DNA of 64,000 nt from Terracidiphilus sp. GTDB lineage: Bacteria > Acidobacteriota > Terriglobia > Terriglobales > Acidobacteriaceae. Shown here piece after piece: positions 13,195 to 56,226 of this stretch (positions are counted from its first letter, which is position 1; every line of letters begins with the position of its first letter). The notes beneath the pieces were generated by a model that was not told where the DNA came from, did not search any database, and saw only the letters and a list, made by a program, of their open reading frames with translations. The translations under genes and the position numbers were made by a program. The DNA lies in the NCBI GenBank assembly GCA_052145255.1, contig JBKQOX010000026.1:33528-97527 (forward strand). The letters are read 5' to 3'.

Positions 13195-14418
13195 ATGCCT
13201 GAAGCGCCTGTAAAACCGGACCTGGGATCGCTGCGCATCGAAGCCCACAAGCGAGGCTCCCGAAATGCTGGCAAGCGCATCGCGATCATTCTTTTCCCGC
13301 TGCTCGCCGCGCTCATAGTCGCAGGAGGAGTCTACGCGTACATACACCAGGCGCCCTCGGTGCAGGTTGCAACCGCAGACGCCCCTGACAACGGGCCACA
13401 GGCCCTGCTCAACGCGAGCGGGTATGTCACCCCGCAGCGGCGCGCCACCGTAGCGGCCAAGATCACGGGGCGCGTTACGGGTGTTTTCTTTACCGAAGGG
13501 ATGTACGTGCACACAGGCTTTGTACTGGCCACCCTTGACGATTCCGATGCGCAACGGACGCTGGCTTCCGCGAAAGCAGATCGCAATGCCACGCAGGCAA
13601 GCATTCTCGATTTGCAAGTGCAGTTGAAGAACGCGCAGATAGAGTTGCATCGGGCCCAGGATCTGAGGGCGGCAGGAATTCAAACTCAGGAAGCGCTCGA
13701 CAATGCGACGATGGCCGTGAACAGCCTGAAAGCGAAAATCGACTACACGCAGGCGCAGGTGCTGTCTGCTGACGCGCGCATCAAAGAGGCGCAGCAGGCG
13801 GTGGATAACTGCATCATCACGGCTCCGTTCGACGGCATCATCGTTTCCAAGGACGCGCAGGTGGGAGAAATGGTGTCGCCAATTTCTGCCGGCGGTGGCT
13901 TCACGCGCACAGGCATCGCGACGATTGTCGATATGGCCTCGAATGAAATCGAAGTGGATGTCAACGAGAACTACATCGCTCGCGTCAAGAGCGGCCAGGA
14001 AGTAACCGCCGTTTTGGATGCATATCCGGACTGGAAGATTCCGTGCCGTGTGCGCACGATCATTCCCACAGCCGATCGTCAGAAGGCGACTGTCGAGGTG
14101 CGCATTGCCTTCGACAAGCTGGATCCGCGCATCCTGCCCGATATGGGCGTGAAGGTCACGTTCCTCGGGGAAGAAACAAAGGTCGGGAAAGAAGCGCCGG
14201 CGAGCGTAATGGTGCCGCAGAATGCGGTCCGCGACGATGGCGGGCAGAAGATCGTTTTCCTGGTGACAGGCGATCACGTCGAGCGTCACGCCGTGAAGGT
14301 CGGCACGACCAACGGAGCGCAAACGCAGATTCTGGCGGGGCTCGTGGCCGGGGACACAGTCGTGGTTGGTGGGCCCTCCAACTTGAAAGATGGCGAAACG
14401 GTAGCAATCAAGCGTTAA
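13195..14418 (+). CDS. Periplasmic adaptor (HlyD/MacA family)
   Basis: N-terminal TM, ASGYV, coiled hairpin, IITAPFDGIIV, EVDVNE, ILPDMGVKV. Confidence 0.9.
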   Translation: MPEAPVKPDLGSLRIEAHKRGSRNAGKRIAIILFPLLAALIVAGGVYAYIHQAPSVQVATADAPDNGPQALLNASGYVTPQRRATVAAKITGRVTGVFFTEGMYVHTGFVLATLDDSDAQRTLASAKADRNATQASILDLQVQLKNAQIELHRAQDLRAAGIQTQEALDNATMAVNSLKAKIDYTQAQVLSADARIKEAQQAVDNCIITAPFDGIIVSKDAQVGEMVSPISAGGGFTRTGIATIVDMASNEIEVDVNENYIARVKSGQEVTAVLDAYPDWKIPCRVRTIIPTADRQKATVEVRIAFDKLDPRILPDMGVKVTFLGEETKVGKEAPASVMVPQNAVRDDGGQKIVFLVTGDHVERHAVKVGTTNGAQTQILAGLVAGDTVVVGGPSNLKDGETVAIKR

Positions 14419-14551
14419 CGCGCCGTTCTTGCAACTCAGTTATCCTTCTGTGATTGGGAATTGCGGAGTGGGACACAGGATGCTGTCCCCGCGAGGAACG
14501 GCGCGATTCGGGCTATGGATCGGATATCGCGGAAATCAAGGAGTGTTGATC

Positions 14552-15292
14552 ATGGTACGCGTGGACGGCAATGGAGCAGTGGGCAGTCTGATTCGCGTTC
14601 GCGGTTTGGACAAAACTTATCGCCGCGGCAACGAGGAAATCGACGTCTTGCAGGGCTTGAATCTCGATGTCGATAAAGGCGACTTCGTGGCCTTCATGGG
14701 GCCGAGCGGCTCGGGCAAGACCACGTTGCTCAATTTGATGGGCGGCCTCGACGTTCCCACGCGCGGCACCATCAGCGTGGCCGGCGATGAAATCACGCAC
14801 ATGTCTGGCAGCAAGCTGACCAACTGGCGGGCGCGCCACGTCGGTTTCATCTTCCAGATGTACAACCTCATTCCCGTGCTTACCGCCTTCGGGAACGTCG
14901 AATTGCCCTTGCTGCTGACCAGGCTTTCCAAGGCCGAGCGCCGCAAGCACATTGAAACTGCTCTTTCCATCGTTGGTTTGGGCGATCGCATGAACCACTA
15001 TCCGCGCCAGCTTTCCGGCGGACAGGAACAGCGTGTTGCCATCGCCCGCGCCATCGTCGCCGATCCCACGTTCCTGCTTTGCGACGAGCCCACCGGCGAC
15101 CTGGACCGCAAAAGCGCCGACGAAGTGATGGAACTCATCAAGCGGTTAGTGAAGGAGCATGGAAAAACCGTGCTGATGGTAACGCACGACCCGGTGGTTG
15201 CGCGCCAGGCCGATACGACACTGCATCTCGAAAAGGGAGTGCTGGTAGAAGCAGGCACGCCGCCGGCAATTGCCGGGGGAGCGCTGTCATGA
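14552..15292 (+). CDS. ABC transporter ATP-binding protein (MacB/LolD clan)
   Basis: ATG 14552 after AAGGAG; GPSGSGKTT, LSGGQEQRVAIARA, CDEPTGDLD. Confidence 0.92.
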   Translation: MVRVDGNGAVGSLIRVRGLDKTYRRGNEEIDVLQGLNLDVDKGDFVAFMGPSGSGKTTLLNLMGGLDVPTRGTISVAGDEITHMSGSKLTNWRARHVGFIFQMYNLIPVLTAFGNVELPLLLTRLSKAERRKHIETALSIVGLGDRMNHYPRQLSGGQEQRVAIARAIVADPTFLLCDEPTGDLDRKSADEVMELIKRLVKEHGKTVLMVTHDPVVARQADTTLHLEKGVLVEAGTPPAIAGGALS

Positions 15293-41495: not shown

Positions 41496-43469
41496 TTACG
41501 TGCCGGGCGCTTGCGGTCCCTTCGGCTTGGCGTTGATGACCACGAGCTTGCGTTTCTTGTAGTCGTTCCAGGTGTTGCTCACGAATACGCTGAACGCCTC
41601 ATTGCGGCGCTGGTCCACAAGCTCCTCGCGCGCCTGGTCGAGATTCTTCGCGATCTCGTCCGGGGTCGGCGCCTGCTTCTCGTCGATCTTCACCACCACG
41701 CCAGTGCGGCCGGCGTTGATGGGGCCACTGATCGCGCCCACACTCATGTCAAAGAGCTGCGGCGCCACCTGGCCTACCTCTCCAAAATCGGGCACCTGTC
41801 CGCTTTCGCCTACCAGGTCGCTGGTCTTCACGGTCGCGCCCACGGCCTTCGCCGCCTTGGCCAGATCCTTGGTTGCCTGCGCCTGATCGGCGAGTTGCTT
41901 TGTCTTCAGGCTCAGCAACGCCGGGAGTTGCTCCTGGCGATAGTCGTCGAGTACGTGGCTCTTCCAGTCGGCAAACGCCGGCGCGTGCGCCGGAACGATC
42001 CCCGTCACCTGGAAGACTGCATAGCCCTCGCCGGTGGTCGCCGATTGCGGCGGATCGCCCTGTTTGGCCAGGAAGGCCTTGGATAGAATCTGCGCGCTAT
42101 CGGGCAGGGCTGCAATCACACCGCCGCTCGCCACCGGATCGGTGGTCACCAGTTCGAGGTGGTGCGCAGCAGCCGTCTTTTCCAATCCGTTCTTGTTTGC
42201 CTCGCTCGTCAACTGCTGAGCATAATTATCCTCGGCCGCTGCCTGGGCCTGGCGCGTGAGCGTTGCAACAATGCTCGCCTGCACGTCGCTCAGCGGCTGA
42301 GTATGCGCGGTCTGCCGTTCTTCAACCTGCACAAGGTGATAGCCGAAGTTGGTTTTCACAATGTCAATCTCGCCAATCTTCTGCGTGAAGATCGCATTGT
42401 CGAACGCGGGCACCATCTTGCCGCGCTGCGCAAATCCCAGCTCGCCGCCGGTGTCCTTGCTGCCCGGATCGTCGGAGTACTTCTTCGCGAGATCGGTCCA
42501 GCTTCCACCCGCCTGGAGCAGCTTGAGAACCATCTGCGCCTTGGCTTTGGCCGCGGCATCGGTTGCTGCATTGGCGTTGGGCGGCACGCTGATGAGGATG
42601 TGGCGCGACTTGGCCTGTTCCGGCACGGAATACTCAGCGGCATGCTCGTTGTAATACTGCTGCACAGCCTGCTGGCTCGGCGGCTGAACGCCCCCGGGAA
42701 TCTGGCTGTCGGTGAACGCGAAGTACGTGATCTTGCGCTCCTCGGGCACCGCCTGCGCGTACCGCGCCGCATTGTTTTTGAAGAATGCTTCGAGCTCGCT
42801 GTCAGAGGGATTGATCGTCTTCCGCAGATCGTCTGAAGCAATCACCGCGTAATCGAACTTGATCTTGATGTTCTGCTTCAGGTAGGTATCGCGCACTTCC
42901 TTATCGCTGACCGTGACCCCGGCAGTAATAAACGCCTGCAACCGCTGGATCGTAATTTGGTCCTTGATCTGGTCCTCGAAATCCGTTACGGATTCGTGCA
43001 GGCGCTCGTCGATCAGCTGCTTATAGGCGTCTTCGCCAATGAACTTGCCGTCGGGGTAAAGCACTTCTGCGGTGGGCCCCGTTCGCAGCCACTTGCGCAC
43101 GTCATCGTCGGTCACGTAGAAGCCCAGCTTGTGCGCCTCTTCAAGCAGCACCTTCTGCTGCACCAGCTGCTGGCCCACCTGCTGCTCAAAGAGCTGCACG
43201 ATCATGGGATTGCTGGCGTATTGCGGATCGCGCTGCTGCAGTTGGTTCTCGGTGATCTGCTCCACGCGCGCCTGGGTGATGCTGTCGCCGGACGAAAGAA
43301 AGCGGCTATACCAGTGCGGATAAACAACAGCGTATGTGTCGGGGGACGAGGAGCCCATGCCGCCGAGGCCCGGGATAAGGTACAGCACCATGGTGACGGA
43401 CGCCGCGCCAATGATGACTACGATCAGCGCCTTGACCATGCGATTGTCTGTTTGCAGGAAACGAATCAT
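41496..43469 (-). CDS. PpiD/SurA-type peptidyl-prolyl isomerase (SurA N-domain plus parvulin domain)
   Basis: N-terminal TM, KSRHILIS, LAKKYSDDPGSKDTGGELG, MVPAFDNAIF, VKTNFGYHLVQV. Confidence 0.9.
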   Translation of the reverse strand: MIRFLQTDNRMVKALIVVIIGAASVTMVLYLIPGLGGMGSSSPDTYAVVYPHWYSRFLSSGDSITQARVEQITENQLQQRDPQYASNPMIVQLFEQQVGQQLVQQKVLLEEAHKLGFYVTDDDVRKWLRTGPTAEVLYPDGKFIGEDAYKQLIDERLHESVTDFEDQIKDQITIQRLQAFITAGVTVSDKEVRDTYLKQNIKIKFDYAVIASDDLRKTINPSDSELEAFFKNNAARYAQAVPEERKITYFAFTDSQIPGGVQPPSQQAVQQYYNEHAAEYSVPEQAKSRHILISVPPNANAATDAAAKAKAQMVLKLLQAGGSWTDLAKKYSDDPGSKDTGGELGFAQRGKMVPAFDNAIFTQKIGEIDIVKTNFGYHLVQVEERQTAHTQPLSDVQASIVATLTRQAQAAAEDNYAQQLTSEANKNGLEKTAAAHHLELVTTDPVASGGVIAALPDSAQILSKAFLAKQGDPPQSATTGEGYAVFQVTGIVPAHAPAFADWKSHVLDDYRQEQLPALLSLKTKQLADQAQATKDLAKAAKAVGATVKTSDLVGESGQVPDFGEVGQVAPQLFDMSVGAISGPINAGRTGVVVKIDEKQAPTPDEIAKNLDQAREELVDQRRNEAFSVFVSNTWNDYKKRKLVVINAKPKGPQAPGT

Positions 43470-43655
43470 GGATGGACTTCAACCCTCTGAGCGCGGCAAG
43501 CCAGGCCTGCGGGCGGCAGCATGGTTTGCTGCAATGCGCGGCGCGCCTGCGTATGCGCGATTCTCGCTGAATGCGACTCTGTCATTATAGACGACGGCAT
43601 GCAGCGGCCTGCGGGCGACGAATTACCGCAACGAAGCGCGAAACGGGCCAAACGC

Positions 43656-43692
43656 ACAACGGGCATCCCGCCTGAGCAGGATGCCCGTTTGT
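43656..43692 (-). terminator. Intrinsic terminator after the BON gene
   Basis: ACAACGGGCATCC...GGATGCCCGTTTGT. Confidence 0.75.
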
Positions 43693-43726
43693 GATCCCGA
43701 AACCCGATCCCTGTTCCCTGGCTCTG

Positions 43727-45100
43727 TTAACGCCAGTAGTACACTCCGCCGACCAGATAGTACGGCCGGTAGTAAACCGGCGGGTACGGGTAGACGTAGC
43801 CTGAATAGTAGCCGTAGTGCGGGCCGTAGCCATAGGGTCCGCGCCGGTAGAGGCTGGGGCCGCCGGGATACAGTCCTTCAGCCAGCCGCGCTGCTTCCTG
43901 CGAGCTCACCGGATTTACCGTGAGCGGCGCAGCGATGTGGAACGTGACCAGAGCCTCCGCGGGGATCCAGACGCGCGGTCCGCCCGAAGCAGCCGAAGCG
44001 GCTGTGCCTCCGGCTGCGCCGGCTCCTGCGCCGATGGCGCAGCCTGGGCCACGGCCAATCGCGCAGCCAATGATGGCGCCAATAATTGCGCCGCCCACCG
44101 CATTGTTCACCGTCTGCCCGGCCTTATTCGGCCCCTTCACTCTGAACTCGTTGGTGGTGATCGGGTAGCTTTGTCCGCCCAGATCGAGCGACGTCAGCGT
44201 GAGGGCCAGGATTGAACTGCCGGCCAGCGTTCCCGAGCCTGCATTCTTCGCTTCAGTCACCACGCCGTGCACAACTGCTCCGCGCGGAATCGCCAGGACG
44301 CCGCCAACGGCTACATCCTGAATCACCGTGAACTGCACCGGCTGGCCATCCTTGGCTCTCTTGCTATCGACCGGCTCGCTGGTGCGCACCTGCAACAACA
44401 TTCCCTGCGGAATGGTCACTGGGCCGCGCGCTGACTGGTATTGGGGGCCCTGGGGCGCCTGCGGATATGGCGGGTATTGCGAGTTCTGCGGATTCTGGTA
44501 CTGCGGCCGCGTGGGCGGAGGCGGCGGATACCCGCCTTGCTGCGGATAGCCCGGCTGCTGCGGATAAGCCGGCGGCTGCGGATTGTTGACTGCGGCCGGG
44601 TCCGGTCCCTGGTTCTGCGGATTCGTGTCCGGAGCGGGGCCCGGAGGCGGCAGGTTCGCCATTTGCTGTTGCGCCGGCGACTGGTCCGAATCCGGCGTCT
44701 CGTCGGCGCTGGAGGCCGGCTGCGGGCTTTGTCCATCAGGCCCCGGGTTCCCAATCTGCAGGTTGTTGTGCACCTTGGTCACGCCGTCAACATGCGCGGC
44801 AATCGACTCGGCCAACTGCTTTGACGCGTCGGTCGATACGGTTCCTGAAAGTGTAACCTCGCCTTGAATCGTCGCCGCGGTGATCAGATCGTTTTTCAGC
44901 GCCGCAGAGGCATCCAGAGCGTGCACCACGTCCATCTCAATTTGCCCGTCGGTTCGCGGTCCCTGTTGCGCCGCCGGCGGCTGACCTTGAGGCTGCGGCG
45001 CGCCTGGGTCCTGCGCCAACGCGACCACGGTGCACAGCACGGCCAATCCCATACTCACCACGAGCTGTGTGCCCACTTTCCTCATCAAAATACCCTTCAT
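43727..45100 (-). CDS. BON domain protein with Pro/Gln linker, TrbI/VirB10-like beta domain, glycine zipper and Tyr-rich tail
   Basis: Signal peptide; ITAATIQGEVTLSGTV...VDGVTKVHNNL; VTIPQGMLLQVRTSEPV...IPRGAVVHGVV; GGAIIGAIIG; GYYSGYVYPYPPVYYRPYY. Confidence 0.8.
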   Translation of the reverse strand: MKGILMRKVGTQLVVSMGLAVLCTVVALAQDPGAPQPQGQPPAAQQGPRTDGQIEMDVVHALDASAALKNDLITAATIQGEVTLSGTVSTDASKQLAESIAAHVDGVTKVHNNLQIGNPGPDGQSPQPASSADETPDSDQSPAQQQMANLPPPGPAPDTNPQNQGPDPAAVNNPQPPAYPQQPGYPQQGGYPPPPPTRPQYQNPQNSQYPPYPQAPQGPQYQSARGPVTIPQGMLLQVRTSEPVDSKRAKDGQPVQFTVIQDVAVGGVLAIPRGAVVHGVVTEAKNAGSGTLAGSSILALTLTSLDLGGQSYPITTNEFRVKGPNKAGQTVNNAVGGAIIGAIIGCAIGRGPGCAIGAGAGAAGGTAASAASGGPRVWIPAEALVTFHIAAPLTVNPVSSQEAARLAEGLYPGGPSLYRRGPYGYGPHYGYYSGYVYPYPPVYYRPYYLVGGVYYWR

Positions 45101-45252
45101 ATCGATTTCTCCTGGTTTCCCCCGTCACGGCCGGCGGTAAAAACTCACGCCCGGCAAACGGTTTTCTCAAATCGCGTCAACGGCTCAAACGGTTAGACGA
45201 GACTCCCCTGAGCCTGTTAACTGCTTAAACCCCGCAACCGGGAAAAAGTTTC

Positions 45253-46980
45253 TTAGCCTAATGCCGCGCTTATCGCTGCACCCAAAGCCTTTAGCCCCGC
45301 GGCCACGTCGGTCGCCAGGTGCACCCGCAGCGCCCTGCGCCCGCGCGACTCCAGCACCGCCAGATCGCCCGCCGCCTGCGCATCGATGACCACGCCAAAG
45401 CTGTACTTTTGGCCGGGAATGTCCATGTCGTCGGCGTGGTCCGCGGTGATTTGCAGAAAGACTCCTGTGTTTGGGCCGCCCTTGTAGTCCTGCCCGGTGG
45501 AGTGCAGAAAGCGCGGGCCAAAGCCAAGGCAGGTGGCCACGCGTTTTTTGTCGCGCACCTTGTGCCGGAAACTCTGGATTGCCGCCTCGTTCTCTTCGAA
45601 CATGGGCAGGAAAGCCAAAGTTGCAAAGTAGTCGCCCGCGGCAAGCTGATCGAGATGCGCACGCAGAATTCCCGCAAGCGTCTGGTTCGGCGCGGCGCCC
45701 TTCAGCTTTGCGGCATAGGCATCGGTCGCATAAAGCGCGAACGTAGTTCCAGCGTCGTCCTTTCCCGTCAGGAATGGAGTGCGCTGCGGCAGCTTGCCGC
45801 TCTTTTCGTACTCCGTGGTCAGTGCGCGCGTCTCGATCTTTGCGGCTTCCACGTCCGGCTGGTTGAAGGGATTGATGCCGATCACCGAGCCTGCAACAGC
45901 GGTCGCAATCTCCCACGTGAAGAACTGCCCGAAGATTTCATAGAGATCTGTGATTTCGAAATACACCACGGGATGGCCGGCGGCTTCCAGAGCCGCAACC
46001 TTGGCATCCTGACTCGCGTCGGCCGTGTTCTTCAGTCGAACGTACGCAAACACGCGATCCTTGCCGTACACCTCTGGCGCACCGATCGCCTCGCGGTCCA
46101 CCGGCGTAATTCCCTTCCCCTGCTTGCCTGTCGATTCGGCGATCAGTTGCTCCAGCCATGCGCCCAGGTCGGCGATCTCTGGCGAAGTAAAGATGGTGAT
46201 CTTGTCGCGGCCGGCGTTGGCCGCCGTTCCCAGCAGCAGGCCGAGCTGCGCGCCGGGATTCTCTGCCACCGGCAGCTTGGCGCTGGCGGCCGCCTTGGCC
46301 GCTTCGGCCAGCAGCTTTTCCACGTCCAAGCCGATCGCCGTGGCCGGGACCAAGCCGAAGTTCGACAGCGCCGAGTAGCGTCCGCCAATCTCTGGATCGC
46401 CATAATGGATGCCTCGGAAGTTGTCCGCCTTCGCCACCTGCTCCATCTTCGAACCGGGATCGGTGATGGCGACAAAATGAGTGCCCACCTCGTCGTCGTT
46501 GTTCACCGCACGCCGCATCTCGGAAAAGAAAAACTGCTTCAGGATGTTCGGCTCGAGCGTCGACCCAGACTTGCTGGCAACGATGACCAGCGTCTCCGCC
46601 AGGTCAACCTCGTCGCATGCGGCCTTCACTTCAGCAGGGTCGGTGGAATCGACGATGTGCAGTTCCGGAAAGCCCGGCCTCTGCCCAAAGGTCTTCGCCA
46701 GAACCTCAGGGCACAGGCTCGATCCGCCCATCCCCAACAAGAGCACGGACCGGAAGTCCGAGCTTTCAATATCTCCGCCCAGCTCCGCGAAGGTCCCCAG
46801 ATCCTTTTGCTGCCGCTCCACAATGTCAATCCAGCCCATCCATTTTTCCTCGCCGTCGCGAGTCCACAGGGACGGATCTTTTTGCCAGAAGCGCTCGACT
46901 TTGTGGTTGGCTTGCCAGTCGGCGGCTGCCGCGTCCACGGCGCCGCGAAGATCGGAGGGTACTGCGAGTCGGAAGCTCAT
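45253..46980 (-). CDS. pgi: Glucose-6-phosphate isomerase-like protein (PGI part of the Tal-Pgi fusion type)
   Basis: LLGMGGSSL, IVDSTDP, ASKSGSTLE, VAITDPGS, IGGRYSALS, WLEQLIAESTGK, NPFNQPDVEAAK, GFGPRFLHSTGQ. Confidence 0.8.
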   Translation of the reverse strand: MSFRLAVPSDLRGAVDAAAADWQANHKVERFWQKDPSLWTRDGEEKWMGWIDIVERQQKDLGTFAELGGDIESSDFRSVLLLGMGGSSLCPEVLAKTFGQRPGFPELHIVDSTDPAEVKAACDEVDLAETLVIVASKSGSTLEPNILKQFFFSEMRRAVNNDDEVGTHFVAITDPGSKMEQVAKADNFRGIHYGDPEIGGRYSALSNFGLVPATAIGLDVEKLLAEAAKAAASAKLPVAENPGAQLGLLLGTAANAGRDKITIFTSPEIADLGAWLEQLIAESTGKQGKGITPVDREAIGAPEVYGKDRVFAYVRLKNTADASQDAKVAALEAAGHPVVYFEITDLYEIFGQFFTWEIATAVAGSVIGINPFNQPDVEAAKIETRALTTEYEKSGKLPQRTPFLTGKDDAGTTFALYATDAYAAKLKGAAPNQTLAGILRAHLDQLAAGDYFATLAFLPMFEENEAAIQSFRHKVRDKKRVATCLGFGPRFLHSTGQDYKGGPNTGVFLQITADHADDMDIPGQKYSFGVVIDAQAAGDLAVLESRGRRALRVHLATDVAAGLKALGAAISAALG

Positions 46981-47238: not shown

Positions 47239-48804
47239 ATGCGACACCTTCTTGCCGTCGCGACCTTGGTGGGAAGCTTTGTTTTTCACTGCTTGCCGTC
47301 AGCAGCTGAAAGCGCTGATCGCGCAGCCTCATACCTGGCCGATTGCAAGGCCAAAGCCGCGGGCATGCTTTGGAAGGAGGCAATGACGGGCTGCGAGAAA
47401 GCAATTCGCGCAAAACCGGACTATGCAGAGGCATACTACGAGCTTGGCCACGCGACAACTTGGTATGGCGCCACTCTGGATAAGCCGGACAAGAGGAAAG
47501 CTGCATACGATGACGCGATTGAAGACTTCACCAAGGCCATCGCCCTGAAGCCCGACTATGCTGAGGCATACGTTGGCCGGGGCTATTTGCTGCGACAGAA
47601 CGGAAACACGGCGGGAACAATCGCCGACTTCACCCGCGCGCTCGAAATCACTGGGAGCGGCTGGTGCAACTGCCAGCAAGCAAAATGGAAAGTTCTCGCA
47701 GACAGAGCTGATTTAAGGGGAGCGGACGGCGACCTCGACGGCGCTCTTGCCGACTACGGCGCTGCGATCGAAGCGTCTCACGAGAAAGAAGCGAGCTCAC
47801 TGCACATCAAGCGCGCCGAACTGGAGAAAGCGAAAGGCAATCCCTCTGGCGCTATTGCAGACCTGACCTCGGCCATCCAACTCAGCTCCGACACCGAAGC
47901 GTACCGGGCTCGCGCCGCCATAAAGCACGAGAAGGGAGACCTCGACGGAGCGATCGCGGACTTGACCTCTGCGCTGCTGGTCGATCCATGCTCCTCGGCT
48001 GCATACGGCGATAGGGCCCCGATAAGGAAGGCCAAGGGCGATACGCCGGGTGCGCAATCGGACGAGGCCGCGGCGAAGCAGTTCAGCGCAAGCGCTGGCA
48101 CATCCTGCGAACAGTCTATGAGTTTCGTTGCTGGCGTTTCCGGGTTTGATGTCCTGATCGAGGTCAGCGACGCACACGGATCCGGACTGTACCCGAAGGA
48201 CTCGCCCACTGCGAAGGATTTCCTTGCGCAAAAAGAAACGGAGCTTGGAGCAAATGCGCAACAGGATATCAAGAGTAAGAACTGGGATGCCGCCGTGTTT
48301 GATCTCACAAAGGCAATTAAACTCGGCATGGACGATCCGCGTCTTTTCATGAATCGCGGTACGATGAGGCGTTTCCGAGGCGATGCCGATGGCGCCAATG
48401 CGGATTTCACCAGAGCCATTCAGATAAGCGAAGAGAGCGCGTCCACGTTGAACGACGTGCCGACAGCTGCGGTCGCGCATTTTGTTCGGGGCGAGGCCGA
48501 GTCCGCGGACTTCGGCGACGCAGAGAAGGCGATCGCGGATTTTGACAAAGCCTTGCAACTGGCTCCGAACGCTTCGGCCTTTCAGGCGGATGTGTACCTC
48601 GGGCGCGCCGCCGCCAAGCAACGCAAGGAAGACCTGGACGGTGCGATTGAGGACTGTACCAAGGCCATCGAGCTGACGCCGGGCAATGCCAACGCCTACT
48701 CTCTTAGGGCCCTCGATAAGCAAGCCAAGGGCGACATTCGTGGCGCAGAGGCTGATCAGGCTGACGCGGCTCGACTGAAGGCAGCTTCCGCAAGCCAAAA
48801 GTGA
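47239..48804 (+). CDS. Secreted tetratricopeptide-repeat protein
   Basis: Signal peptide; repeated DLDGA(L/I)AD, AIEDFTKAI, PDYAEAY. Confidence 0.88.
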   Translation: MRHLLAVATLVGSFVFHCLPSAAESADRAASYLADCKAKAAGMLWKEAMTGCEKAIRAKPDYAEAYYELGHATTWYGATLDKPDKRKAAYDDAIEDFTKAIALKPDYAEAYVGRGYLLRQNGNTAGTIADFTRALEITGSGWCNCQQAKWKVLADRADLRGADGDLDGALADYGAAIEASHEKEASSLHIKRAELEKAKGNPSGAIADLTSAIQLSSDTEAYRARAAIKHEKGDLDGAIADLTSALLVDPCSSAAYGDRAPIRKAKGDTPGAQSDEAAAKQFSASAGTSCEQSMSFVAGVSGFDVLIEVSDAHGSGLYPKDSPTAKDFLAQKETELGANAQQDIKSKNWDAAVFDLTKAIKLGMDDPRLFMNRGTMRRFRGDADGANADFTRAIQISEESASTLNDVPTAAVAHFVRGEAESADFGDAEKAIADFDKALQLAPNASAFQADVYLGRAAAKQRKEDLDGAIEDCTKAIELTPGNANAYSLRALDKQAKGDIRGAEADQADAARLKAASASQK

Positions 48805-48882: not shown

Positions 48883-49854
48883 TTATGGCCGGTTTGGCGT
48901 AATGCGAATGAGATCGAGCCGATCTCCGGTCCCGCCTACTTCTTCCAACACAAACTCCGGCGAGGCTGCCGGGACCGCAACAATTCCGCGTGGCGGAAGA
49001 TCGATTGGGTCAAATTTCGCTCCCGAGGGACCCGCGGCCGACAGCCGCCCCGCTCCGGCAGCCGCAAACAGGTATGCGAGCCCGCGCTTGCCGCCCGCGC
49101 CGCGCAGGGTTTCGCTCATCAGGTCGCGGACCACGGGAATTCGCTCCACGCGAAAGTATGCAACATCGATCAGAACCGTGCGATCTGCAAGTTCGATCGG
49201 GGCCACCTTCCCGGCACGCGTCACGAGCTTCGTCGCTTCCAGCGATTTCTCAATGTGCAGCTGGCGCGGACGCCCGTAGTCATACATCCTGTAAGTCACG
49301 TCGGAATTCTGCTGCGTCTCAAGCAGAATCGACCCCGGCCAGATCGCGTGCACGGTTCCAGCATCGACATAAATCGTGTCTCCCACCGCAACCGAAACCA
49401 TGTTCAATCGGTCTTCGAGCGTTCCCGCGCGAATGCCCTCCTCAATTTCGCCGAGCGTGGTTCCGGGCTTCACACCGACTGCAACCTCCGCTCCCGGCTC
49501 GGCGGCCAGCGCATACCAGCACTCCGTCTTACCGCGCGGCTCGCCGTATTTCCGCGCCATCGCGTCGTCGGGATGCACCTGGACACTCAGCTTTTCCCGC
49601 GCAAAGATCGTCTTGATCAGCAAAGGCGAACCCACGGCCGGAGCGTCGGGACCGAGCAGTGCCGAGTTTTCCTTTTTGAAAAGCGTGCCCAGCTTTTTGC
49701 CGGCGTCCGGCCCGGTCGCGACGGAGCATTCGTCGCCGGTCAGCCAGACTTCGCCGATGGGATCGCCTTCGGCCACGCGGTCGTACCAGGGCCGCAGGTC
49801 GCGGAATCCCCACACCCGCGCCGTAAACACGGGGTCGATGCGGAACGGCGCCAT
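48883..49854 (-). CDS. manA: Type I phosphomannose isomerase (cupin)
   Basis: RVWGFRDL, IGEVW, PLLIKTIFAREKLSVQVHPDD, GKTECWY, AGTVHAI, ETQQNSDVTYRMYDYGR; start 49854 or 49887. Confidence 0.9.
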   Translation of the reverse strand: MAPFRIDPVFTARVWGFRDLRPWYDRVAEGDPIGEVWLTGDECSVATGPDAGKKLGTLFKKENSALLGPDAPAVGSPLLIKTIFAREKLSVQVHPDDAMARKYGEPRGKTECWYALAAEPGAEVAVGVKPGTTLGEIEEGIRAGTLEDRLNMVSVAVGDTIYVDAGTVHAIWPGSILLETQQNSDVTYRMYDYGRPRQLHIEKSLEATKLVTRAGKVAPIELADRTVLIDVAYFRVERIPVVRDLMSETLRGAGGKRGLAYLFAAAGAGRLSAAGPSGAKFDPIDLPPRGIVAVPAASPEFVLEEVGGTGDRLDLIRITPNRP

Positions 49855-50039
49855 TTCAGTTGCCGAAGAATGCGCTGAAGCTGCCATAGAGCTTGCTGCT
49901 AACCTCTTTGCCTCGTTGCCGTTGCCGCCGGTTCCCAGCTCCGGTCCCGAAGACACTCTCACTCTAGCAGACAGGCGAATCTGCTTTTGATCAAAAATGC
50001 GCTTGATTCCAGCCTGTCGCATGCTACCCTCGACCTGCC

Positions 50040-51308
50040 ATGCGCCATCGAGTTCAATTACTCCTTGCAGCGTTTGCTGTTTTCGGGGCTCTGCACCCAA
50101 TTTCCGCCCAGAAATTTCTTCCCAAGTCCATCCAGTTTCAGGGCGCGCCCGAGTACTCCACCGACGAACTGCTCTCTGCAACGGGACTGAAAAAGGACGT
50201 CGTCCTCAGCTACACAGACATGCAGGACTACTCGAAGCGTCTGCTGGGTTCAGGTGCCTTTGCGTCTGTGGCCTTCAAGTTCGACGGCCAGGATTTGATC
50301 TTTCTGCTCACCCCGTCCACCGATCTCTACCCAATCCAGCTTCAAAATCTTCCGCTCACTCCTGGCGCGGATCTCGACGCCAAGCTCCACGAGCAGATTC
50401 CGCTTTATCACGGCAAGGTCCCGGCCGAGGGCGGCCTTACGGACGCCGTGAGCAGTGCGCTCCAACAGATGCTCGCGGCAAAGGGGCTGAAGGCAACCGT
50501 CACCGCCACAGCAGTCGAGACGGGGGGCGCGTTCGTCAGCTTCTTGATTGAATCTCCCGCAGTCGTGGTCGGCCCGATTCGGATTGCAAGCACGTCGGCG
50601 GCGCTCGACAGCGGCGCCCAGGGAATTCTCGCAAAACTGAACGGATCGCCTTACGACTCGACAGGAACCACAAGCCAGCTCACCACTTATCTGGGCAATT
50701 ACTACCACAACAGCGGATATTTGGAGGCCGAAGTTCACGCAGAGCCGGATGGTGAGCCCAGCGAAACAGACACTGCGATTCAGGTTCCCTTTGAGATCTC
50801 GGTGACACCTGGCATTCAGTACCGCCTCGCCGGAGTGCAATTCGCGCCAGATATTCCGACGACGCAGGCCGACTTCTTCCGGCAATCGCCCATCCATCCC
50901 GGCAACATCGCCGACGGTCAGCACCTGACTGAGGACTGGCAGTATATTTCGCGCCAGTACCACAATCACGGATACATGATGGCGAGCGTCCACCCTGCGC
51001 CCACGTTCGATCACGAGAAAGGAACAGTCAGCTTCATGGTTACGGCCGACTCCGGTCCCATCTACACCATGGGTACGCTCACAATTGAGAACGTCAGCGA
51101 CGAACTACGCGCGGCGATACTCGCCGCGTGGAAGATGCCACAGGGTTCAGTCTTCAACGAGGGCGCGGCCCGCGGGTTTTTCATCACGCACGGCGTGAAC
51201 CCCGCGCTTGAACGCGTCTTCGCCGCGGTGAATGTGTCCTATACACAACAACTGAATGACACGAATCACAGCGTCGATCTGGTTTTGAAGCTGGAGAAGA
51301 AACCCTGA
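50040..51308 (+). CDS. Secreted multi-POTRA protein without a beta-barrel, paralogue 1
   Basis: Signal peptide; SIQFQGAPEYSTDELL, RLLGSGAFASV, YHNSGYLEAEV, YHNHGYMMASV, GPIYTMGTLTI; ends at 422 aa. Confidence 0.75.
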   Translation: MRHRVQLLLAAFAVFGALHPISAQKFLPKSIQFQGAPEYSTDELLSATGLKKDVVLSYTDMQDYSKRLLGSGAFASVAFKFDGQDLIFLLTPSTDLYPIQLQNLPLTPGADLDAKLHEQIPLYHGKVPAEGGLTDAVSSALQQMLAAKGLKATVTATAVETGGAFVSFLIESPAVVVGPIRIASTSAALDSGAQGILAKLNGSPYDSTGTTSQLTTYLGNYYHNSGYLEAEVHAEPDGEPSETDTAIQVPFEISVTPGIQYRLAGVQFAPDIPTTQADFFRQSPIHPGNIADGQHLTEDWQYISRQYHNHGYMMASVHPAPTFDHEKGTVSFMVTADSGPIYTMGTLTIENVSDELRAAILAAWKMPQGSVFNEGAARGFFITHGVNPALERVFAAVNVSYTQQLNDTNHSVDLVLKLEKKP

Positions 51309-51327
51309 TTCCGGGTATCCTCTCTCC

Positions 51328-51915
51328 ATGCTCCACTCTGTGATCTTCAACGACATGTTCCAAATGCAGCTTCCGTTTCTGGAGAAGCTGCTTCGTCCCG
51401 CCATCGTCTACCTGGCGCTGGTGGTGCTGCTGCGCATCTTCGGCAAGCGCGAACTGGCGCAGCTCAACCCGTTCGACCTTGTCGTTCTGCTCTCTCTCTC
51501 GAATACTGTGCAGAACGCCATCATCGGCAACGACAACTCCCTCTCCGGGGGAATCATCGGGGCCGTCGCTTTGCTGGCCGTGAACTGGCTGGTGGTCCGT
51601 GCGCTCTTCAGCTCGCCGAAGCTCACGCGCGCGTTCGAGGGCCGCGCCACTATTCTCATCCGTGACGGAAAGGTCGACCAGAAGGCGCTGCAGCGCGAGT
51701 CGCTCTCCCAGCAGGAACTCCTCGACGTGATCCACCGCCAGGGCTTCGACAGCGTCCAAAAAGTGCAGCGGTGCGAGCTGGAGCCCAACGGAACGTTTTA
51801 TGTGGAGGCCTTTCAGCCCTCCGTGGCCGACCAGCAGCACGACGAGCTGGTGGCGCGGCTGGAAGCGCTGCAGAGCCAGATTGCCGCGCTTCGACCGCAG
51901 CCTGCCGGCGATTAG
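51328..51915 (+). CDS. YetF/DUF421 family membrane protein
   Basis: LLRIFGKRELAQLNPFDLVVLL, ILIRDGKV, LEPNGTF. Confidence 0.9.
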   Translation: MLHSVIFNDMFQMQLPFLEKLLRPAIVYLALVVLLRIFGKRELAQLNPFDLVVLLSLSNTVQNAIIGNDNSLSGGIIGAVALLAVNWLVVRALFSSPKLTRAFEGRATILIRDGKVDQKALQRESLSQQELLDVIHRQGFDSVQKVQRCELEPNGTFYVEAFQPSVADQQHDELVARLEALQSQIAALRPQPAGD

Positions 51916-51973
51916 CGGGCTGTTTTGCTGCCGCTGGTGCTCGGTCTGCTAGGGGCAACCGAGTATATTCCAC

Positions 51974-52009
51974 TTGCGGATATATCCGTTTCGGATATAT
52001 AGTGCCAGC
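51974..52009 (+). promoter_or_regulatory. Probable leaderless promoter with a 9-3-9 palindromic operator
   Basis: TTGCGG (51974), 18-nt spacer, TATAGT (51998), 6 nt, ATG 52010; ATATATCCG-TTT-CGGATATAT at 51980-52000. Confidence 0.7.
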
Positions 52010-52354
52010 ATGGATACTCGATCGGATCCCGGAGCACCCCTCACTCCCGCGGTTTTTGCCATCCTTCTTTCGCTTGCCGAAGGGGAAAAGCACGGATACC
52101 TCATCATGAAAGATGCGCGCACGCCCGAAGGAGGCGGTGTACGACTTGGTCCCGGAACACTCTATGGCTCACTGGACCGCATGATGCGCGACGGGCTGGT
52201 CGCCGAATCGGGTATGTCCGACGACGAGCGCCGCCGCTATTACCGCTTGGCCGCACCGGGCCGTCGCGCTCTCACCGCAGAGCTTCGGCGCCTCGATGCC
52301 GCCGTGAAATCCGCCCGGTCGCTCGGCCTGTTTCCCAACAGGAGCCGCCCATGA
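52010..52354 (+). CDS. PadR family transcriptional regulator
   Basis: FAILLSLAEGEKHGYLIMK, LGPGTLYGSLDRM, RRRYYRL. Confidence 0.92.
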   Translation: MDTRSDPGAPLTPAVFAILLSLAEGEKHGYLIMKDARTPEGGGVRLGPGTLYGSLDRMMRDGLVAESGMSDDERRRYYRLAAPGRRALTAELRRLDAAVKSARSLGLFPNRSRP

Positions 52355-53157
52355 CACCCGATCGCGTCGAACGGATTTACACAATTGCACTCCGCCTTTA
52401 CCCCAAACGATTTCGGACTTCGTACGAGTCCGCTATGCTCCAGGCGTTCCGAGATACGCGCGCCGATCGCTCTCTCTCGCACGGAGTTGTGGCCCGCACA
52501 ATCCTCAAGGATCTTATTGTTTCGCTCGTAAAGGAGCATCTCGCCATGCTGTGCGAAGCCTTTGGTCGTCCCGCCTTGCTCTTCAACGCCTTTGTCCTGA
52601 CCGGAATCTCCACCATCCTCGCTCTGGCGCTCTATGCAATTCCGCAACAGGTGCTCCGGCAAGGGGCAAATGATCCGCAGATCGCGATGGCGACTGACCT
52701 CGCCGTCTACCTGAATCAATATGGCGTCACCGACGGCCTCAGCCAGGGCGCGTTGACCGTGCGCGGCGGCGGAATCGTCGACATGGCGAGGAGCTTGTCC
52801 CCGTTTCTGATTGTCTACGACGATGAGGGCCGCGCTTTGGGCTCAACTGGGCAGCTTGACGGGCAGATGCCCGCCCCTCCCCAGGGCGTCTTTGATTATG
52901 TGCGCGCGCACGGCGAGGAGCGAGTGAGCTGGCAGCCGATCCTCGGCACCGAGCGCGGAGTTCGCATTGCCGCCGTCGTAGAGCGCGTCAGCGGAAATCA
53001 ACCTGGATTTGTTCTCGCCGGACGTTCTTTGCGCGAGGTCGAAGTTCGCGAGGCGCATGTGGAACACATGGCCGGGCTGGCATGGATAGGAATGTTGGCG
53101 TTGGTTCTGTTTGGGACCGCTGCTTTTGGCTGGTTTACGCGCCCGAAGATCGCGTGA
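52351..53157 (+). CDS. Membrane protein with cytoplasmic N-terminal helices, TM, extracytoplasmic Cache/PAS-like domain and C-terminal TM
   Basis: ATGA overlap with padR; ALRLYPKRFRTSY, TM, SLSPFLIVYDDEG..LGSTGQLDG..PAPPQGVF..GEERVSWQP, FVLAGRSLREVE, TM. Confidence 0.8.
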   Translation: MTPDRVERIYTIALRLYPKRFRTSYESAMLQAFRDTRADRSLSHGVVARTILKDLIVSLVKEHLAMLCEAFGRPALLFNAFVLTGISTILALALYAIPQQVLRQGANDPQIAMATDLAVYLNQYGVTDGLSQGALTVRGGGIVDMARSLSPFLIVYDDEGRALGSTGQLDGQMPAPPQGVFDYVRAHGEERVSWQPILGTERGVRIAAVVERVSGNQPGFVLAGRSLREVEVREAHVEHMAGLAWIGMLALVLFGTAAFGWFTRPKIA

Positions 53158-53201
53158 TGCATTTCATTGCAGCATCCGCAGTTTGCTAATCTTGGCGCAG
53201 C

Positions 53202-54497
53202 ATGATCAAAACGGCTCGACTGCTTGTTGTTGTTCTCCTATGCTCGCTACCGTTGCTCGCGCAGAAGAAGGCTCCGCCCCGGGCCATCCGTTTTCAAGGC
53301 GCGACGCAATATTCGCAGGATGAGCTGCTCGCGGCCGCCGGCATCAAGCCCGGCGCGCGGCTCACCGTCGCCGACGTAAAAGCGCACGCCAAACAGCTCA
53401 ACGATACGGGCTTCTTTGCGGTGGTCAAGTTCGGCAACGACAGCAAGGGCCTTCTTTTCACGTTGACTCCTGCCGGCCAGCTCTACCCCATGCATCTCGA
53501 CAATCTGCCGCTCAAGCCGGGCAAAGATCTCGACGACAAAATCCATGCGCGCTTCCCGCTTTATCACGGCCTTTTGCCCCCCAGCGGCTCTACGGACGAT
53601 GGAATCTGCCAAATGCTTGAAGCAATGCTGGCGGACGAAGGTGCGAAGGCGACGGTAAAAGCGAGTCTCACGAGCGACCTCGGCCCTAGGAAAATAACGG
53701 CGATGAACTTTACGATCACATCGCCGCCGGTACACATCGGTCCAATTCAGCTTGCCGGCGTTTCGCCCGCCATGCAGGCCAAAGTGAATACTCTCGTCGA
53801 GGGCCAGACCGGAAACGAGTTCGATACGGAGAACACCGCAATCGGGCTACAGCACGCCTTTGAAGATCTGTACCAGGACCAGGGTTACGCGGCCGTCAAA
53901 ATCGACGTGGGCCAACTCGATCCTCGCGTTATCTCGGGCCAAGGCCCGGATATTGCCATCGAAATCGCTTTTTCGGTCGCGATCACGGAAGGCGGAGTCT
54001 ATAAGCTCGGAACCATCAACTATCCGGCGGATGCACTGGCTTCGCGCGCGGAGGTCGGGAAGTTTCTGGCGAAGTATCAGGCCGGTTCCGGCAGGCCGCT
54101 CGATCAGTTTCTCCTGGCCGTCAACGACGCCTATCACGCCCGCGGGTATCTCGATTGCTCCGTCGTCTCTCACGCTTCATTCAACGAGGCCACGCACATC
54201 GTGAACTACAGCGTCGAGATCGATCCCGGACCGCTCTATAAAATGGGCGCGGTTCAATTCGATGGCGCTCCCGATGCCATGGCTATAAAACTCAAAAGTG
54301 CCTGGAAACTCGCGCCCGGCGCGACCTTTGACGAAAGTTACGTTTCAGCTTTCGCGGCCCAGGCGGAAAAGAAAGACAAGGCCTTGTCGAAGTGGATGCA
54401 AACCGTTCTCGTCACATTCAATGAGAAGCCCGACCCCGACACGCATCAGGTCAACTGCATCTTCCACTTCGCAAAGGCTGGGCAGGGCGGGCGGTAG
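53202..54497 (+). CDS. Secreted multi-POTRA protein without a beta-barrel, paralogue 2
   Basis: Signal peptide; AIRFQGATQYSQDELL, QLNDTGFFAVV, YQDQGYAAVKI, YHARGYLDCSV, GPLYKMGAVQF. Confidence 0.75.
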   Translation: MIKTARLLVVVLLCSLPLLAQKKAPPRAIRFQGATQYSQDELLAAAGIKPGARLTVADVKAHAKQLNDTGFFAVVKFGNDSKGLLFTLTPAGQLYPMHLDNLPLKPGKDLDDKIHARFPLYHGLLPPSGSTDDGICQMLEAMLADEGAKATVKASLTSDLGPRKITAMNFTITSPPVHIGPIQLAGVSPAMQAKVNTLVEGQTGNEFDTENTAIGLQHAFEDLYQDQGYAAVKIDVGQLDPRVISGQGPDIAIEIAFSVAITEGGVYKLGTINYPADALASRAEVGKFLAKYQAGSGRPLDQFLLAVNDAYHARGYLDCSVVSHASFNEATHIVNYSVEIDPGPLYKMGAVQFDGAPDAMAIKLKSAWKLAPGATFDESYVSAFAAQAEKKDKALSKWMQTVLVTFNEKPDPDTHQVNCIFHFAKAGQGGR

Positions 54498-54678: not shown

Positions 54679-56226
54679 TCACTCCCACTCGATCGTGCCC
54701 GGCGGCTTCGACGTAATGTCGTACACCACGCGGTTGATCCCGCGGACTTCGTTCACAATCCTGTTGGAGATGCGCTTCAAGAGGTCGTACGACAGGGGTG
54801 TCCAGTCGGCAGTCATGCCGTCTTCAGAATGTACAGCGCGGATGGCGCAGGTATACGCGTAAGTGCGCTGGTCGCCCATCACACCCACGCTCATCACCGG
54901 CAGCAGCACGGCGAAGCTCTGCCAGATCTTGGTATAAAGCCCGGCGGCCTTGATCTCAGCGACGACGATCTCGTCGGCTTCTTGCAGCAGCGCCACGCGC
55001 TCCGGTGTCACTTCGCCCAGGATGCGCACCGCCAGCCCCGGACCAGGAAACGGTTGCCGGCTCAGAATTTCTTCGGGCATTCCCAGATCGCGCCCGATGC
55101 GCCGGACCTCATCCTTGAACAGGTCGCGCAGCGGCTCGATCAACTTGAGCTTCATCCGCTCCGGCAGGCCGCCCACGTTGTGGTGGCTCTTGATGGTCTG
55201 GCTCGGTCCCTTCACGCTCGACGATTCGATCACGTCGGGATAAAGCGTTCCCTGCACCAGCCACTCCACGCCGCCCGTCGCCTGCGCGATGCGATTGGCT
55301 TCGTCCTCAAACACCGCGATGAACTCCGCTCCGATGCGCTTGCGCTTCATTTCGGGTTCGGTCACCCCGGCCAGCTTCTCCAAAAAGCGCGCGCTCGCGT
55401 TCACACCAACGATCTTTAGTCCCAGTTTGCCGCGGAGGTTCGCCTGCACGCTGGTGAACTCGTTCTTACGCAGCACGCCGTTGTTCACAAAAATGCACGT
55501 CAGCTGGTCGCCGATCGCTTTGTGGACCAGCACCGCGGCCACCGAGGAATCCACGCCGCCCGAAAGCCCGCAGATTACGTGCCCTCCGCCCACCTTCTCG
55601 CGGATCGAGGCGACTGTGTTCTCGATAAAGTGTGCCGCGGTCCAGTCGCCGCGCGCTCCGCAGATGGTCAGAAAGTTTCGAATGAGCTGCGGCCCCAGCG
55701 GTGTGTGGTGCACCTCGGGATGGAATTGCACAGCCCAGATGCCGCGTCCCTCGTTGGCGATTCCGGCCAGCGCGTTTTCGGTAACGGCGATGCGGCGAAA
55801 ACCCGGGGGCAGCTCGGCCGCCTCGTCGCCATGGCTCATCCACACATGGATCGTCGCCGGCAGCCCCGCGAAGAGCGGCGTCGACAGGTCTTCCAACTTG
55901 ACCTCAGCATGGCCGTACTCGCGCTTGGGCGCGGAGAGCACCTTGCCGCCCAGGTGATGCACGATGAAATGGAGTCCGTAGCAAACGCCCAGCACGGGCA
56001 CGCCGAGTTCAAGAACACCAGGGTCGGCAGCCGGAGCATCCTCGTCGTACACCGACGAAGGGCCGCCCGAAAGAATCAATCCAATCGGCTTGAGCGCCCG
56101 AATCTCGCCGAGAGGCGCCGTGCACGGCAACACCACCGAAAATACATTCTGCTCGCGAATGCGCCGCGCGATGAGCTGCGTGTATTGCGACCCGAAATCG
56201 AGGATGACAATTGTCTGGGTGTCCAC
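54679..56226 (-). CDS. guaA: GMP synthase (glutamine-hydrolysing)
   Basis: [66 protein letters not shown]. Confidence 0.99.

Follow-up and report, generated by a model that had tools for sequence, protein, structure and literature searches.

What can the periplasmic arm of BamA do when it is made without a barrel, and does it form one unit with the genes beside it? Both questions are raised by a locus of a peat-soil acidobacterium (Terracidiphilus sp.), where two nearby genes encode apparently exported, barrel-less BamA-type arms, here called POTRA-A and POTRA-B (A and B). To our knowledge, nearly all work on POTRA arrays concerns the arm attached to an Omp85 barrel, and the stand-alone action of such arrays is still debated. 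The ORF list of the window (the whole stretch of DNA analysed, 64,000 nucleotides) places five ORFs at the locus, all on the + strand, with the two POTRA genes flanking yetF, padR and a putative sensor gene as the first-pass annotation had described (Table 1). In relatives, the phosphomannose isomerase-like gene and guaA are the conserved left and right neighbours.

Table 1. Features of the locus, in window coordinates
Feature	Coordinates	Strand	Basis
POTRA-A, putatively exported barrel-less five-POTRA protein, 422 aa	50040..51308	+	ORF; Pfam POTRA; AF2; Foldseek
POTRA1 of A, residues 30-92	50127..50315	+	AF2: E30-34 H41-48 H58-71 E74-82 E85-92
POTRA2 of A, residues 96-172, bears family signature	50325..50555	+	AF2
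POTRA3 of A, residues 174-256	50559..50807	+	AF2; pairs with BamA POTRA3 in profile search
POTRA4 of A, residues 262-337	50823..51050	+	AF2; strongest Pfam POTRA stretch 276-332
POTRA5 of A, residues 343-420	51066..51299	+	AF2; ORF end
YetF-family (DUF421) membrane protein, 195 aa	51328..51915	+	Pfam PF04239, E 4.4e-13; 19 nt downstream of A
Palindrome CGGATATATCCG, candidate PadR operator	51977..51988	.	Sequence; immediately before/inside padR start region
PadR-family regulator, 126 aa as listed	51974..52354	+	Pfam PF03551, E 2.5e-13
Two-TM membrane protein, 268 aa, predicted PAS/PDC-like periplasmic domain	52351..53157	+	AF2; Foldseek
POTRA-B, putatively exported barrel-less five-POTRA paralogue, 431 aa	53202..54497	+	ORF; Pfam POTRA; identity to A
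Type I phosphomannose isomerase-like gene, left slot flank	48883..50181	-	Pfam PF20511, weak
guaA (GMP synthase), right slot flank, convergent with B	54679..56226	-	Pfam GMP_synt_C + GATase

A and B are paralogues, 31% identical end to end (E 2e-68), and Pfam POTRA (PF07244) matches both above its gathering cut-off of 21.3 bits, with 58.3 bits for A and 48.2 bits for B. The AF2 model of A (pLDDT 87.7, pTM 0.70) consists of exactly five beta-alpha-alpha-beta-beta units, the repeated POTRA fold. Foldseek with this model returned BamA for all of the top ~40 matches (best E 9.5e-24; 406-428 aligned columns). By profile as well as by structure the array is collinear with BamA POTRA1-5; with 9pxj, for example, query residues 12-354 pair with residues 9-354 of the chain in the profile search. 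The HMM and structure comparisons that the first-pass annotation had named beforehand thus gave a POTRA fold matching BamA POTRA1-5 and no other fold, in agreement with its description of two paralogous proteins of about five POTRA units. The G-Y turns that it had noticed are real, G226-Y227 and G311 being invariant in the family alignment. Export, claimed as well, is judged by eye: both proteins look exported, their N-termini having a hydrophobic core and then A-Q-K, and signal peptides can be read at about residues 1-23 of A (from the alignment; ...HPISA before QKF) and residues 1-20 of B (...PLLA before QKK). No further hydrophobic segment was found beyond the N-terminus in the AF2 model of A. 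Both would be exported by Sec and probably reside in the periplasm.

The barrel, reported missing in the first reading of the DNA, is indeed absent. The Pfam search gave no match to the Omp85 barrel (PF01103) in A or B, A terminates two residues past the last POTRA5 strand, and neither end (...LKLEKKP in A, ...AKAGQGGR in B) has a terminal aromatic residue. A frameshifted barrel downstream is excluded, because yetF begins 19 nt after A and guaA, on the opposite strand, lies 181 nt after B. NCBIfam TIGR03303 scores 74.1 bits for A and 66.1 bits for B, below the equivalog cut-off of 297, and the match spans profile positions 4-317 of 741 only.

These properties set the two proteins apart from the known POTRA systems. 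With BamA (Omp85) they share the number and order of the successive POTRA domains (five) and, by prediction, export by a signal peptide, but they have neither the 16-strand barrel nor the beta-signal, carry their own POTRA2 motif, are dispensable and are only ~23% identical to the BamAs of the host genome, over partial stretches. Hence they are no recent truncation of a BamA. FtsQ/DivIB (POTRA_1, PF08478) likewise uses a POTRA domain outside an Omp85 barrel as an envelope interaction module; however, it has a single POTRA, its membrane anchor stays uncleaved and its C-terminal domain is distinct, whereas A and B have five POTRAs and a signal peptide that appears, by eye, to be cleavable, and POTRA_1 reaches 14.8 bits, under its cut-off of 23. 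The TpsB/ShlB layout of two POTRAs followed by a ShlB barrel was not found either: such a barrel is absent from both proteins, and no ShlB (PF03865) or Omp85_2 (PF19143) barrel was found in the host genome, which is 97.8% complete.

A and B belong to a large family, with at least 539 clusters at 50% identity (E<1e-30), whose members (710 and 768 homologues) are uniformly ~420-440 aa long and barrel-less. Most of it falls within Acidobacteriaceae, with scattered occurrences across the phylum. The signature of the family lies in POTRA2, N-L-P-L-x-P-G ... P-L-Y-H-G-x-x-P at residues 103-128 of A, where N103, P105, L112, L122, H124, G125 and P128 are invariant in A1 in the family alignment. The generalised motif P-L-[FY]-x-G-x-[LV]-P is retained down to members of 22-25% identity, and the BamAs of the host genome lack it. 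The tree sets the B clade apart with 100/100 support, and this clade holds ~70% identity; A-type genes evolve fast, with 40-60% identity where guaA keeps 85-90%. The family is present in 20 of the 34 sampled genomes of the taxonomic family and in ~37 of 401 phylum genomes; it is dispensable and accessory. A full-text literature search found no published description of it. JGI annotates many members as "BamA" or "outer membrane protein insertion porin family", a label that is wrong for barrel-less proteins.

The simplest reading of A and B is that of a soluble POTRA protein, the part of the first-pass proposal (soluble chaperones or detached barrel adaptors) that is supported. We give about an even chance to the view that they are soluble periplasmic strand-binding proteins serving as non-essential accessories to outer-membrane protein biogenesis. 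On this analysis, each would be a Sec-exported soluble protein whose only content is a full POTRA1-5 array of the BamA type. The family would be an ancient, divergent branch of the periplasmic arm of Omp85 that has no barrel, duplicating and getting lost inside one genomic slot of Terracidiphilus-like Acidobacteriaceae. Since POTRA domains elsewhere bind extended segments or partners by strand addition to the edge of their sheet, the sheet edges of A and B may add a strand from extended polypeptide segments or from partner proteins. The proteins could then keep unfolded outer-membrane proteins bound or pass them on, or link BAM/TAM components to one another, and the POTRA2 loop P-L-[FY]-x-G-x-[LV]-P would be the likeliest site of a contact specific to the family. 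POTRA domains of both BamA and Toc75 bind unfolded client peptides in isolation; Toc75 is the subject of PMC4811774.

The job proposed here, soluble periplasmic binding of unfolded outer-membrane proteins, is that of SurA/PpiD and Skp, but these show no homology to A and B. Skp is present in 34/34 family genomes and a PpiD/SurA-like gene in the window, as first noted, so that there is no chaperone gap to fill and A and B do not replace these chaperones. Other observations also count against the accessory reading: none of the family's neighbours is a conserved link to genes of BAM, TAM or chaperones, no transcript contig from a close relative covers gene A, and the fast divergence of A-type genes would also suit interactions that vary and are not housekeeping.

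As a large natural set of five-POTRA proteins that are probably soluble, the family is a ready-made experiment on the arm without the barrel. Binding of A and B to BAM/TAM partners or to unfolded outer-membrane proteins would reveal what the arm can do barrel-free and add an envelope-biogenesis component in Acidobacteria, a phylum that is abundant in soil but little studied experimentally. If their ligands are of another kind, the POTRA fold would have wider uses than are known now. More tentatively, we consider it possible that free-standing POTRA1-5 arrays form a novel category of envelope factor, natural BamA arms in soluble form that would chaperone clients or gate access to BAM/TAM in Acidobacteria, with the POTRA2 loop as a new docking site and the B subfamily as a neofunctionalised specialist. 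The practical consequence is a correction of annotation: barrel-less members are neither BamA nor insertion porins, and they should not be grouped into an operon with PadR.

Instead of assisting BAM/TAM, the free arrays might compete with or regulate it, mimicking the BamA arm and titrating clients or partners (chaperones, BamD-like lipoproteins, the TamB C-terminus) to tune or buffer barrel assembly. This would fit the domain-by-domain collinearity with BamA POTRA1-5 as well as dispensable genes of varying copy number. It would also fit the duplicated, TamA-like BamA that Acidobacteria carry linked to tamB (Heinz et al. 2015, PMC4494059), a case of duplication and divergence of the BamA arm in the same phylum; of the two Omp85 proteins of the host, one (1134 aa) is of this kind. 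However, the TamA-like BamA has retained a barrel, contains a larger number of POTRA domains and is tamB-linked, whereas A and B lack a barrel and are not linked to any bamA, tamB or bamD locus. Moreover, their ~23% identity to the host BamAs makes shared partner-binding surfaces unlikely, and the family bears its own conserved motif. We regard such competition as unlikely.

POTRA arrays also serve as general interaction modules, as in FtsQ/DivIB and in substrate recognition by TpsB, and A and B might be scaffolds outside outer-membrane protein biogenesis, acting on a secreted or surface substrate, in envelope spacing or in a system with the YetF membrane protein. The yetF product matches PF04239 with 49.2 bits (cut-off 23.6; YetF_N reaches 21.4, under its cut-off of 26.5), and in the close clade yetF trails a POTRA gene by only 17-84 nt in 39 of 49 pairs. 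The fast divergence of A-type genes and the weak matches to POTRA_2 (PF08479, ShlB-type), with B at 26.8 bits just above the cut-off of 24 and A at 22.5 below it, point in the same direction. But yetF is missing near every distant member, the host genome has no TpsB/ShlB barrel, and the nearest sequence and structure matches are all BamA. A scaffold of this kind seems rather unlikely to us.

The first-pass annotation had further proposed a regulated module; on this view, PadR and its membrane partner would control both POTRA chaperones as one envelope-stress unit. The genes share a strand, have short gaps and no terminator-like excess between them, and the start of the membrane-protein gene overlaps the padR stop (ATGA). 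PadR itself is well matched by its winged-helix family (PF03551, 50.3 bits, cut-off 27; TIGR03433 reaches 49 bits, below 101.8). The membrane protein has no Pfam match, and its AF2 model is of medium confidence (pLDDT 72); Foldseek relates it to the WalK extracellular domain (E 3e-4), so the label "sensor" is plausible for a protein whose periplasmic part is predicted to resemble extracytoplasmic PAS/PDC sensor domains. In a close relative, transcript contigs cover yetF, the membrane gene and B, and one crosses the junction between the latter two; none of these contigs covers gene A.

Gene order, examined in the synteny comparison suggested with the proposal, nevertheless weakens it. Among the 47 complete slots (the manA..guaA interval), 28 contain yetF and 19 do not, 10 contain two POTRA genes, and 8 contain padR, in each case accompanied by the membrane gene; 6 of these 8 have no B-type gene. 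All five genes occur together in 1/47, plus one incomplete contig, and their order is common only to the nearest relative (L024) and in part to L025. In L018/L019, a GGDEF gene on the opposite strand parts the POTRA gene from padR. In other genera and families, the 7 kb around a member contained neither yetF nor the membrane gene, and padR only once, as an unrelated gene in L152; distant members share no neighbour or neighbour cluster. Across lineages, linkage does not go beyond inherited synteny, and the genes form no conserved operon. The palindrome CGGATATATCCG occurs as a single exact copy in the window, before padR, and the window scan found none upstream of A or B; at two mismatches ~1.6 occurrences are expected by chance, so only its position is suggestive. 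The grouping is a local accident of gene order and not a conserved module: distinct cassettes, carrying yetF, padR and the membrane-sensor gene, occupy the slot together in this lineage. Regulation as one unit is improbable, and A and B should not be assigned to a PadR operon; in this strain, transcription of the padR-membrane unit may at most continue into B.

Very improbable is a split Omp85, in which a barrel without POTRA domains would be encoded elsewhere and the POTRA proteins, as its detached arm, would re-join it non-covalently. The adaptor half of the first-pass proposal is likewise not supported: no candidate partner was found, as the host genome has only two Omp85 (PF01103) barrels, both complete BamA-type proteins with at least five POTRAs of their own, and no barrel gene adjoins any family member examined. 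Functionless, decaying remnants of bamA duplicates would account for the patchy distribution and frequent loss, but are effectively refuted by conservation: hundreds of intact members of constant length without internal stops, 27 alignment columns invariant across paralogues, a confident fold (AF2), and a well-conserved B clade with B transcribed in a relative.

Two gene models at the locus may be refined. The true start of the phosphomannose isomerase-like gene probably lies well within the listed ORF, and padR has an alternative ATG start at 52010.

Reading the open frames of the window, we found five plus-strand ORFs lying head to tail and bounded by two minus-strand genes (see the table). 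The outermost two encode POTRA-A and POTRA-B (hereafter A and B), which the first-pass annotation had described as barrel-less multi-POTRA paralogues. Every structural point of that description was upheld by the ORFs, Pfam, AF2, Foldseek and a pairwise alignment of A with B (31% identity across the whole length, E 2e-68). Both proteins pass the Pfam cut-off for POTRA, and neither matches the Pfam model of the Omp85 barrel. The match to the NCBIfam BamA model is confined to the POTRA stretch of that model (4-317 of 741 positions) and, at 74 and 66 bits, falls short of the cut-off of 297. An LmeA-like Pfam match on A (E 0.003, under the cut-off) was taken as noise.

Features of the locus and its neighbourhood, in window coordinates
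Feature	Position	Strand	Remarks
PpiD/SurA-like rotamase	41496-43469	-	neighbourhood upstream of the slot
BON-domain protein	43727-45100	-	neighbourhood upstream of the slot
PGI	45253-46980	-	neighbourhood upstream of the slot
TPR-repeat protein	47239-48804	+	521 aa; between the PGI and PMI genes
Phosphomannose-isomerase-like gene (PMI, manA)	48883-50181	-	left flank
POTRA-A	50040-51308	+	422 aa
YetF/DUF421 protein	51328-51915	+	ORF
PadR regulator	51974-52354	+	ORF
Membrane protein	52351-53157	+	268 aa; start overlaps padR stop
POTRA-B	53202-54497	+	431 aa
guaA	54679-56226	-	right flank

The AF2 model of A, which was built from a 33-sequence family alignment and stands for A alone, reached a pLDDT of 87.7 and a pTM of 0.70, with the relative orientation of the domains uncertain. 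An N-terminal helix of low confidence precedes five beta-alpha-alpha-beta-beta units (residues 30-92, 96-172, 174-256, 262-337 and 343-420). When the model was compared with the PDB by Foldseek, about the first 40 places were all taken by BamA (best E 9.5e-24), and the 406-428 aligned columns correspond to the entire POTRA1-5 arm. A profile search of PDB sequences agreed on the collinearity: residues 12-354 of the query, for instance, align with 9-354 of the 9pxj chain. A ends two residues past the last strand of POTRA5; since 19 nt separate A from yetF and 181 nt separate B from the convergent guaA, a barrel hidden by a frameshift is impossible. The frameshifted or downstream barrel considered in the first-pass annotation is thus ruled out by this geometry together with the uniform length of the homologues.

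The C-termini (...LKLEKKP in A and ...AKAGQGGR in B) are without an aromatic beta-signal. At the N-termini of both subfamilies the alignment shows a hydrophobic core followed by A-Q-K, which we read as a putative cleavable Sec signal. A lipoprotein reading of B at Cys14 was judged unlikely: the V-L-L ahead of the cysteine is no lipobox, the cysteine is missing from one orthologue, and A-Q-K comes after the hydrophobic core.

A and B are hence exported-looking, barrel-less paralogues of the BamA arm, and they belong to a large and uniform POTRA-only family with its own signature. Word-indexed homology searches returned 710 and 768 homologues; among the matches listed, the proteins are 370-460 aa long with POTRA domains and nothing else, and where a source is named it is a Terracidiphilus MAG. 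Among 1.84 billion representatives, searched exhaustively with a profile, 539 clusters (50% identity) had E<1e-30, and the complete entries among the best 150 clusters have 403-488 aa, mostly 415-445 aa, the shorter ones being fragments. In a genome scan of the phylum sample, scoring the top four candidates per genome, 37 of 401 Acidobacteriota genomes matched at E<=1e-20, from 19 of 227 genera. These include 20 of the 34 sampled Acidobacteriaceae, the window's own taxonomic family, and members of several further families, whose open frames measure about 430-570 aa; two longer matches (861 and 863 aa) are possibly genuine BamAs. One distant member seemed to have an open frame of 995 aa, but the excess proved to be GC-rich read-through upstream of a real protein of about 430 aa, and a barrel there was rejected.

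The own genome holds A and B as its sole members of the family. Both share about 23% identity with its BamAs, over partial stretches only, so the family is old and diverged and did not arise by recent truncation. In POTRA2, A and B carry the signature N-L-P-L-x-P-G...P-L-Y-H-G-x-x-P, which is absent from both of these BamAs and generalises, in members at 22-25% identity, to F-x-N-[FL]-x-W...E-L...P-L-[FY]-x-G-x-[LV]-P-x-x-G. If the family has a contact site of its own, this POTRA2 loop is the likeliest place for it. An Acidobacteriaceae genome of another genus (L139, G249:C9:20494-24597) has three tandem barrel-less POTRA genes of 442, 466 and 440 aa, so tandem expansion reaches beyond the window's clade. 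NCBI labels the homologues "POTRA domain-containing protein" or "hypothetical", and many are named "BamA" or "outer membrane protein insertion porin family" by JGI. A search of full-text literature, of incomplete coverage, found no description of a barrel-less, soluble or POTRA-only protein family. We therefore class the free-standing architecture and the family as undescribed, the domain array itself being known and the sequences already in public databases under names.

POTRA domains occur in BamA, TamA, TpsB, Toc75 and FtsQ, an established basis for inferring a role in strand addition. By analogy with these proteins, we consider the chances about even that A and B act in the periplasm by strand addition to a client or partner, their most probable role being an accessory one in outer-membrane protein biogenesis. 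That they compete with the BamA arm, a close variant of this reading, is unlikely. The family is worth testing by a specialist in barrel assembly.

The first-pass annotation had joined A and B with yetF, padR and the membrane gene in one candidate regulated module. We compared 80 loci from species-representative genomes, the best 80 of 195 and all from one clade (Acidobacteriaceae or Terracidiphilus-like MAGs), placing the window's genes by tblastn. The slot between manA and guaA, complete in 47 of them, is conserved, and its contents are variable. One POTRA gene is present in 37 of the 47 slots and two in 10, yetF in 28, and padR with the membrane gene in eight, never one without the other. 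All five genes occur together only in the nearest relative (1/47); in L025, a short contig, the sequence breaks off after the first four. Elsewhere A and B are immediate neighbours (L020/L021), yetF and B stand alone (L022/L023), or an opposite-strand GGDEF gene separates POTRA from padR (L018/L019). A PIN/MazE-type toxin-antitoxin pair in the slot of these last two loci (14038-14716) underlines that it gathers unrelated cassettes.

The only recurrent linkage is that of a POTRA gene with a yetF behind it, 17-84 nt downstream in 39 of 49 pairs and limited to a closely related clade with guaA 85-97% identical. A scaffold for something outside barrel assembly, possibly with YetF, is a still less probable role for A and B. 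Twenty distant loci from other genera and taxonomic families were fetched with flanks of 7 kb on either side: none had yetF or the membrane gene, and padR occurred once, at a distance. Clustering of all neighbours gave no common family beyond sister genomes, and hence no conserved partner gene; there is no conserved module. In the maximum-likelihood tree, B-type genes form a single clade (100/100 support) nested within the family, whose stem is long (0.83) and whose internal branches are short, and they always stand last before guaA; the genes in first position belong to several deep lineages. The picture is one of a fixed slot with tandem duplication, divergence and loss, which yetF or padR with the membrane gene enter and leave.

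A perfect palindrome, CGGATATATCCG, lies at 51977-51988 and has no second exact copy elsewhere in the window. The near-repeat CGGATATATAG follows after 2 nt, and the pair (51977-52001) stands directly ahead of an alternative padR start (ATG 52010), likely as a candidate autoregulatory PadR operator. The palindrome was not found upstream of A or B, so an operator shared by the POTRA genes was rejected. With the full gene set confined to one slot and the palindrome to padR, a regulated module is improbable. The membrane protein has two TM segments, no Pfam family and a conserved Y-P-x-x-F-R motif in its N-terminal cytoplasmic helices. Its AF2 model (pLDDT 72) has a periplasmic part like PAS/PDC extracytoplasmic sensor domains, for example the one in WalK (Foldseek E 3e-4), which makes the label "sensor" reasonable, not strong; it may be a partner controlling PadR. 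A promoter and terminator scan of the locus gave no more sites than shuffled sequence.

Two soil metatranscriptomes contain contigs that match yetF, the membrane gene and B at about 93% identity; these contigs come from another strain, may contain DNA and, with that limit, show expression in a relative. One of them (53093-53488) runs across the boundary between the membrane gene and B, which would fit transcription continuing from the padR unit into B. For A, the two metatranscriptomes held no covering contig.

In the window's neighbourhood, the gene set at 41496-46980 is kept in relatives, placing envelope genes near the slot on the opposite strand with metabolic genes intervening. PGI and PMI adjoin in L020-L023 or have only a 105-aa ORF between them, so the TPR gene appears to have been inserted in this lineage only. 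In L020, the PpiD-like gene has a group II intron-type reverse transcriptase (RVT_1 + GIIM, 418-1890) inserted beside it.

Detached adaptors for a barrel encoded elsewhere had also been proposed. Searches of the own genome (a MAG, 97.8% complete) with PF01103, PF03865 and PF19143 yielded only two Omp85 barrels, both full-length BamA-type proteins with their own POTRA arrays (990 aa with five POTRAs; 1134 aa with six POTRA matches in the genome scan), and no ShlB-type (PF03865) or Omp85_2-type (PF19143) barrel. They fit the pair of canonical and TamA-like BamA described for Acidobacteria (PMC4494059). There is no orphan barrel; with no candidate partner, a split Omp85 is more improbable again than a regulated module. 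Gene decay is hardly conceivable.

All 34 sampled Acidobacteriaceae genomes have Skp, with or without a POTRA-only gene. A and B are therefore no replacement for Skp, and the family, which is dispensable, fills no chaperone gap. In the own genome, outside the window (G000 C23:29608-30970), skp (OmpH) is present as a tandem pair some 3-4 kb downstream of the canonical bamA, on the contig that carries that gene, and several relatives also have two copies.
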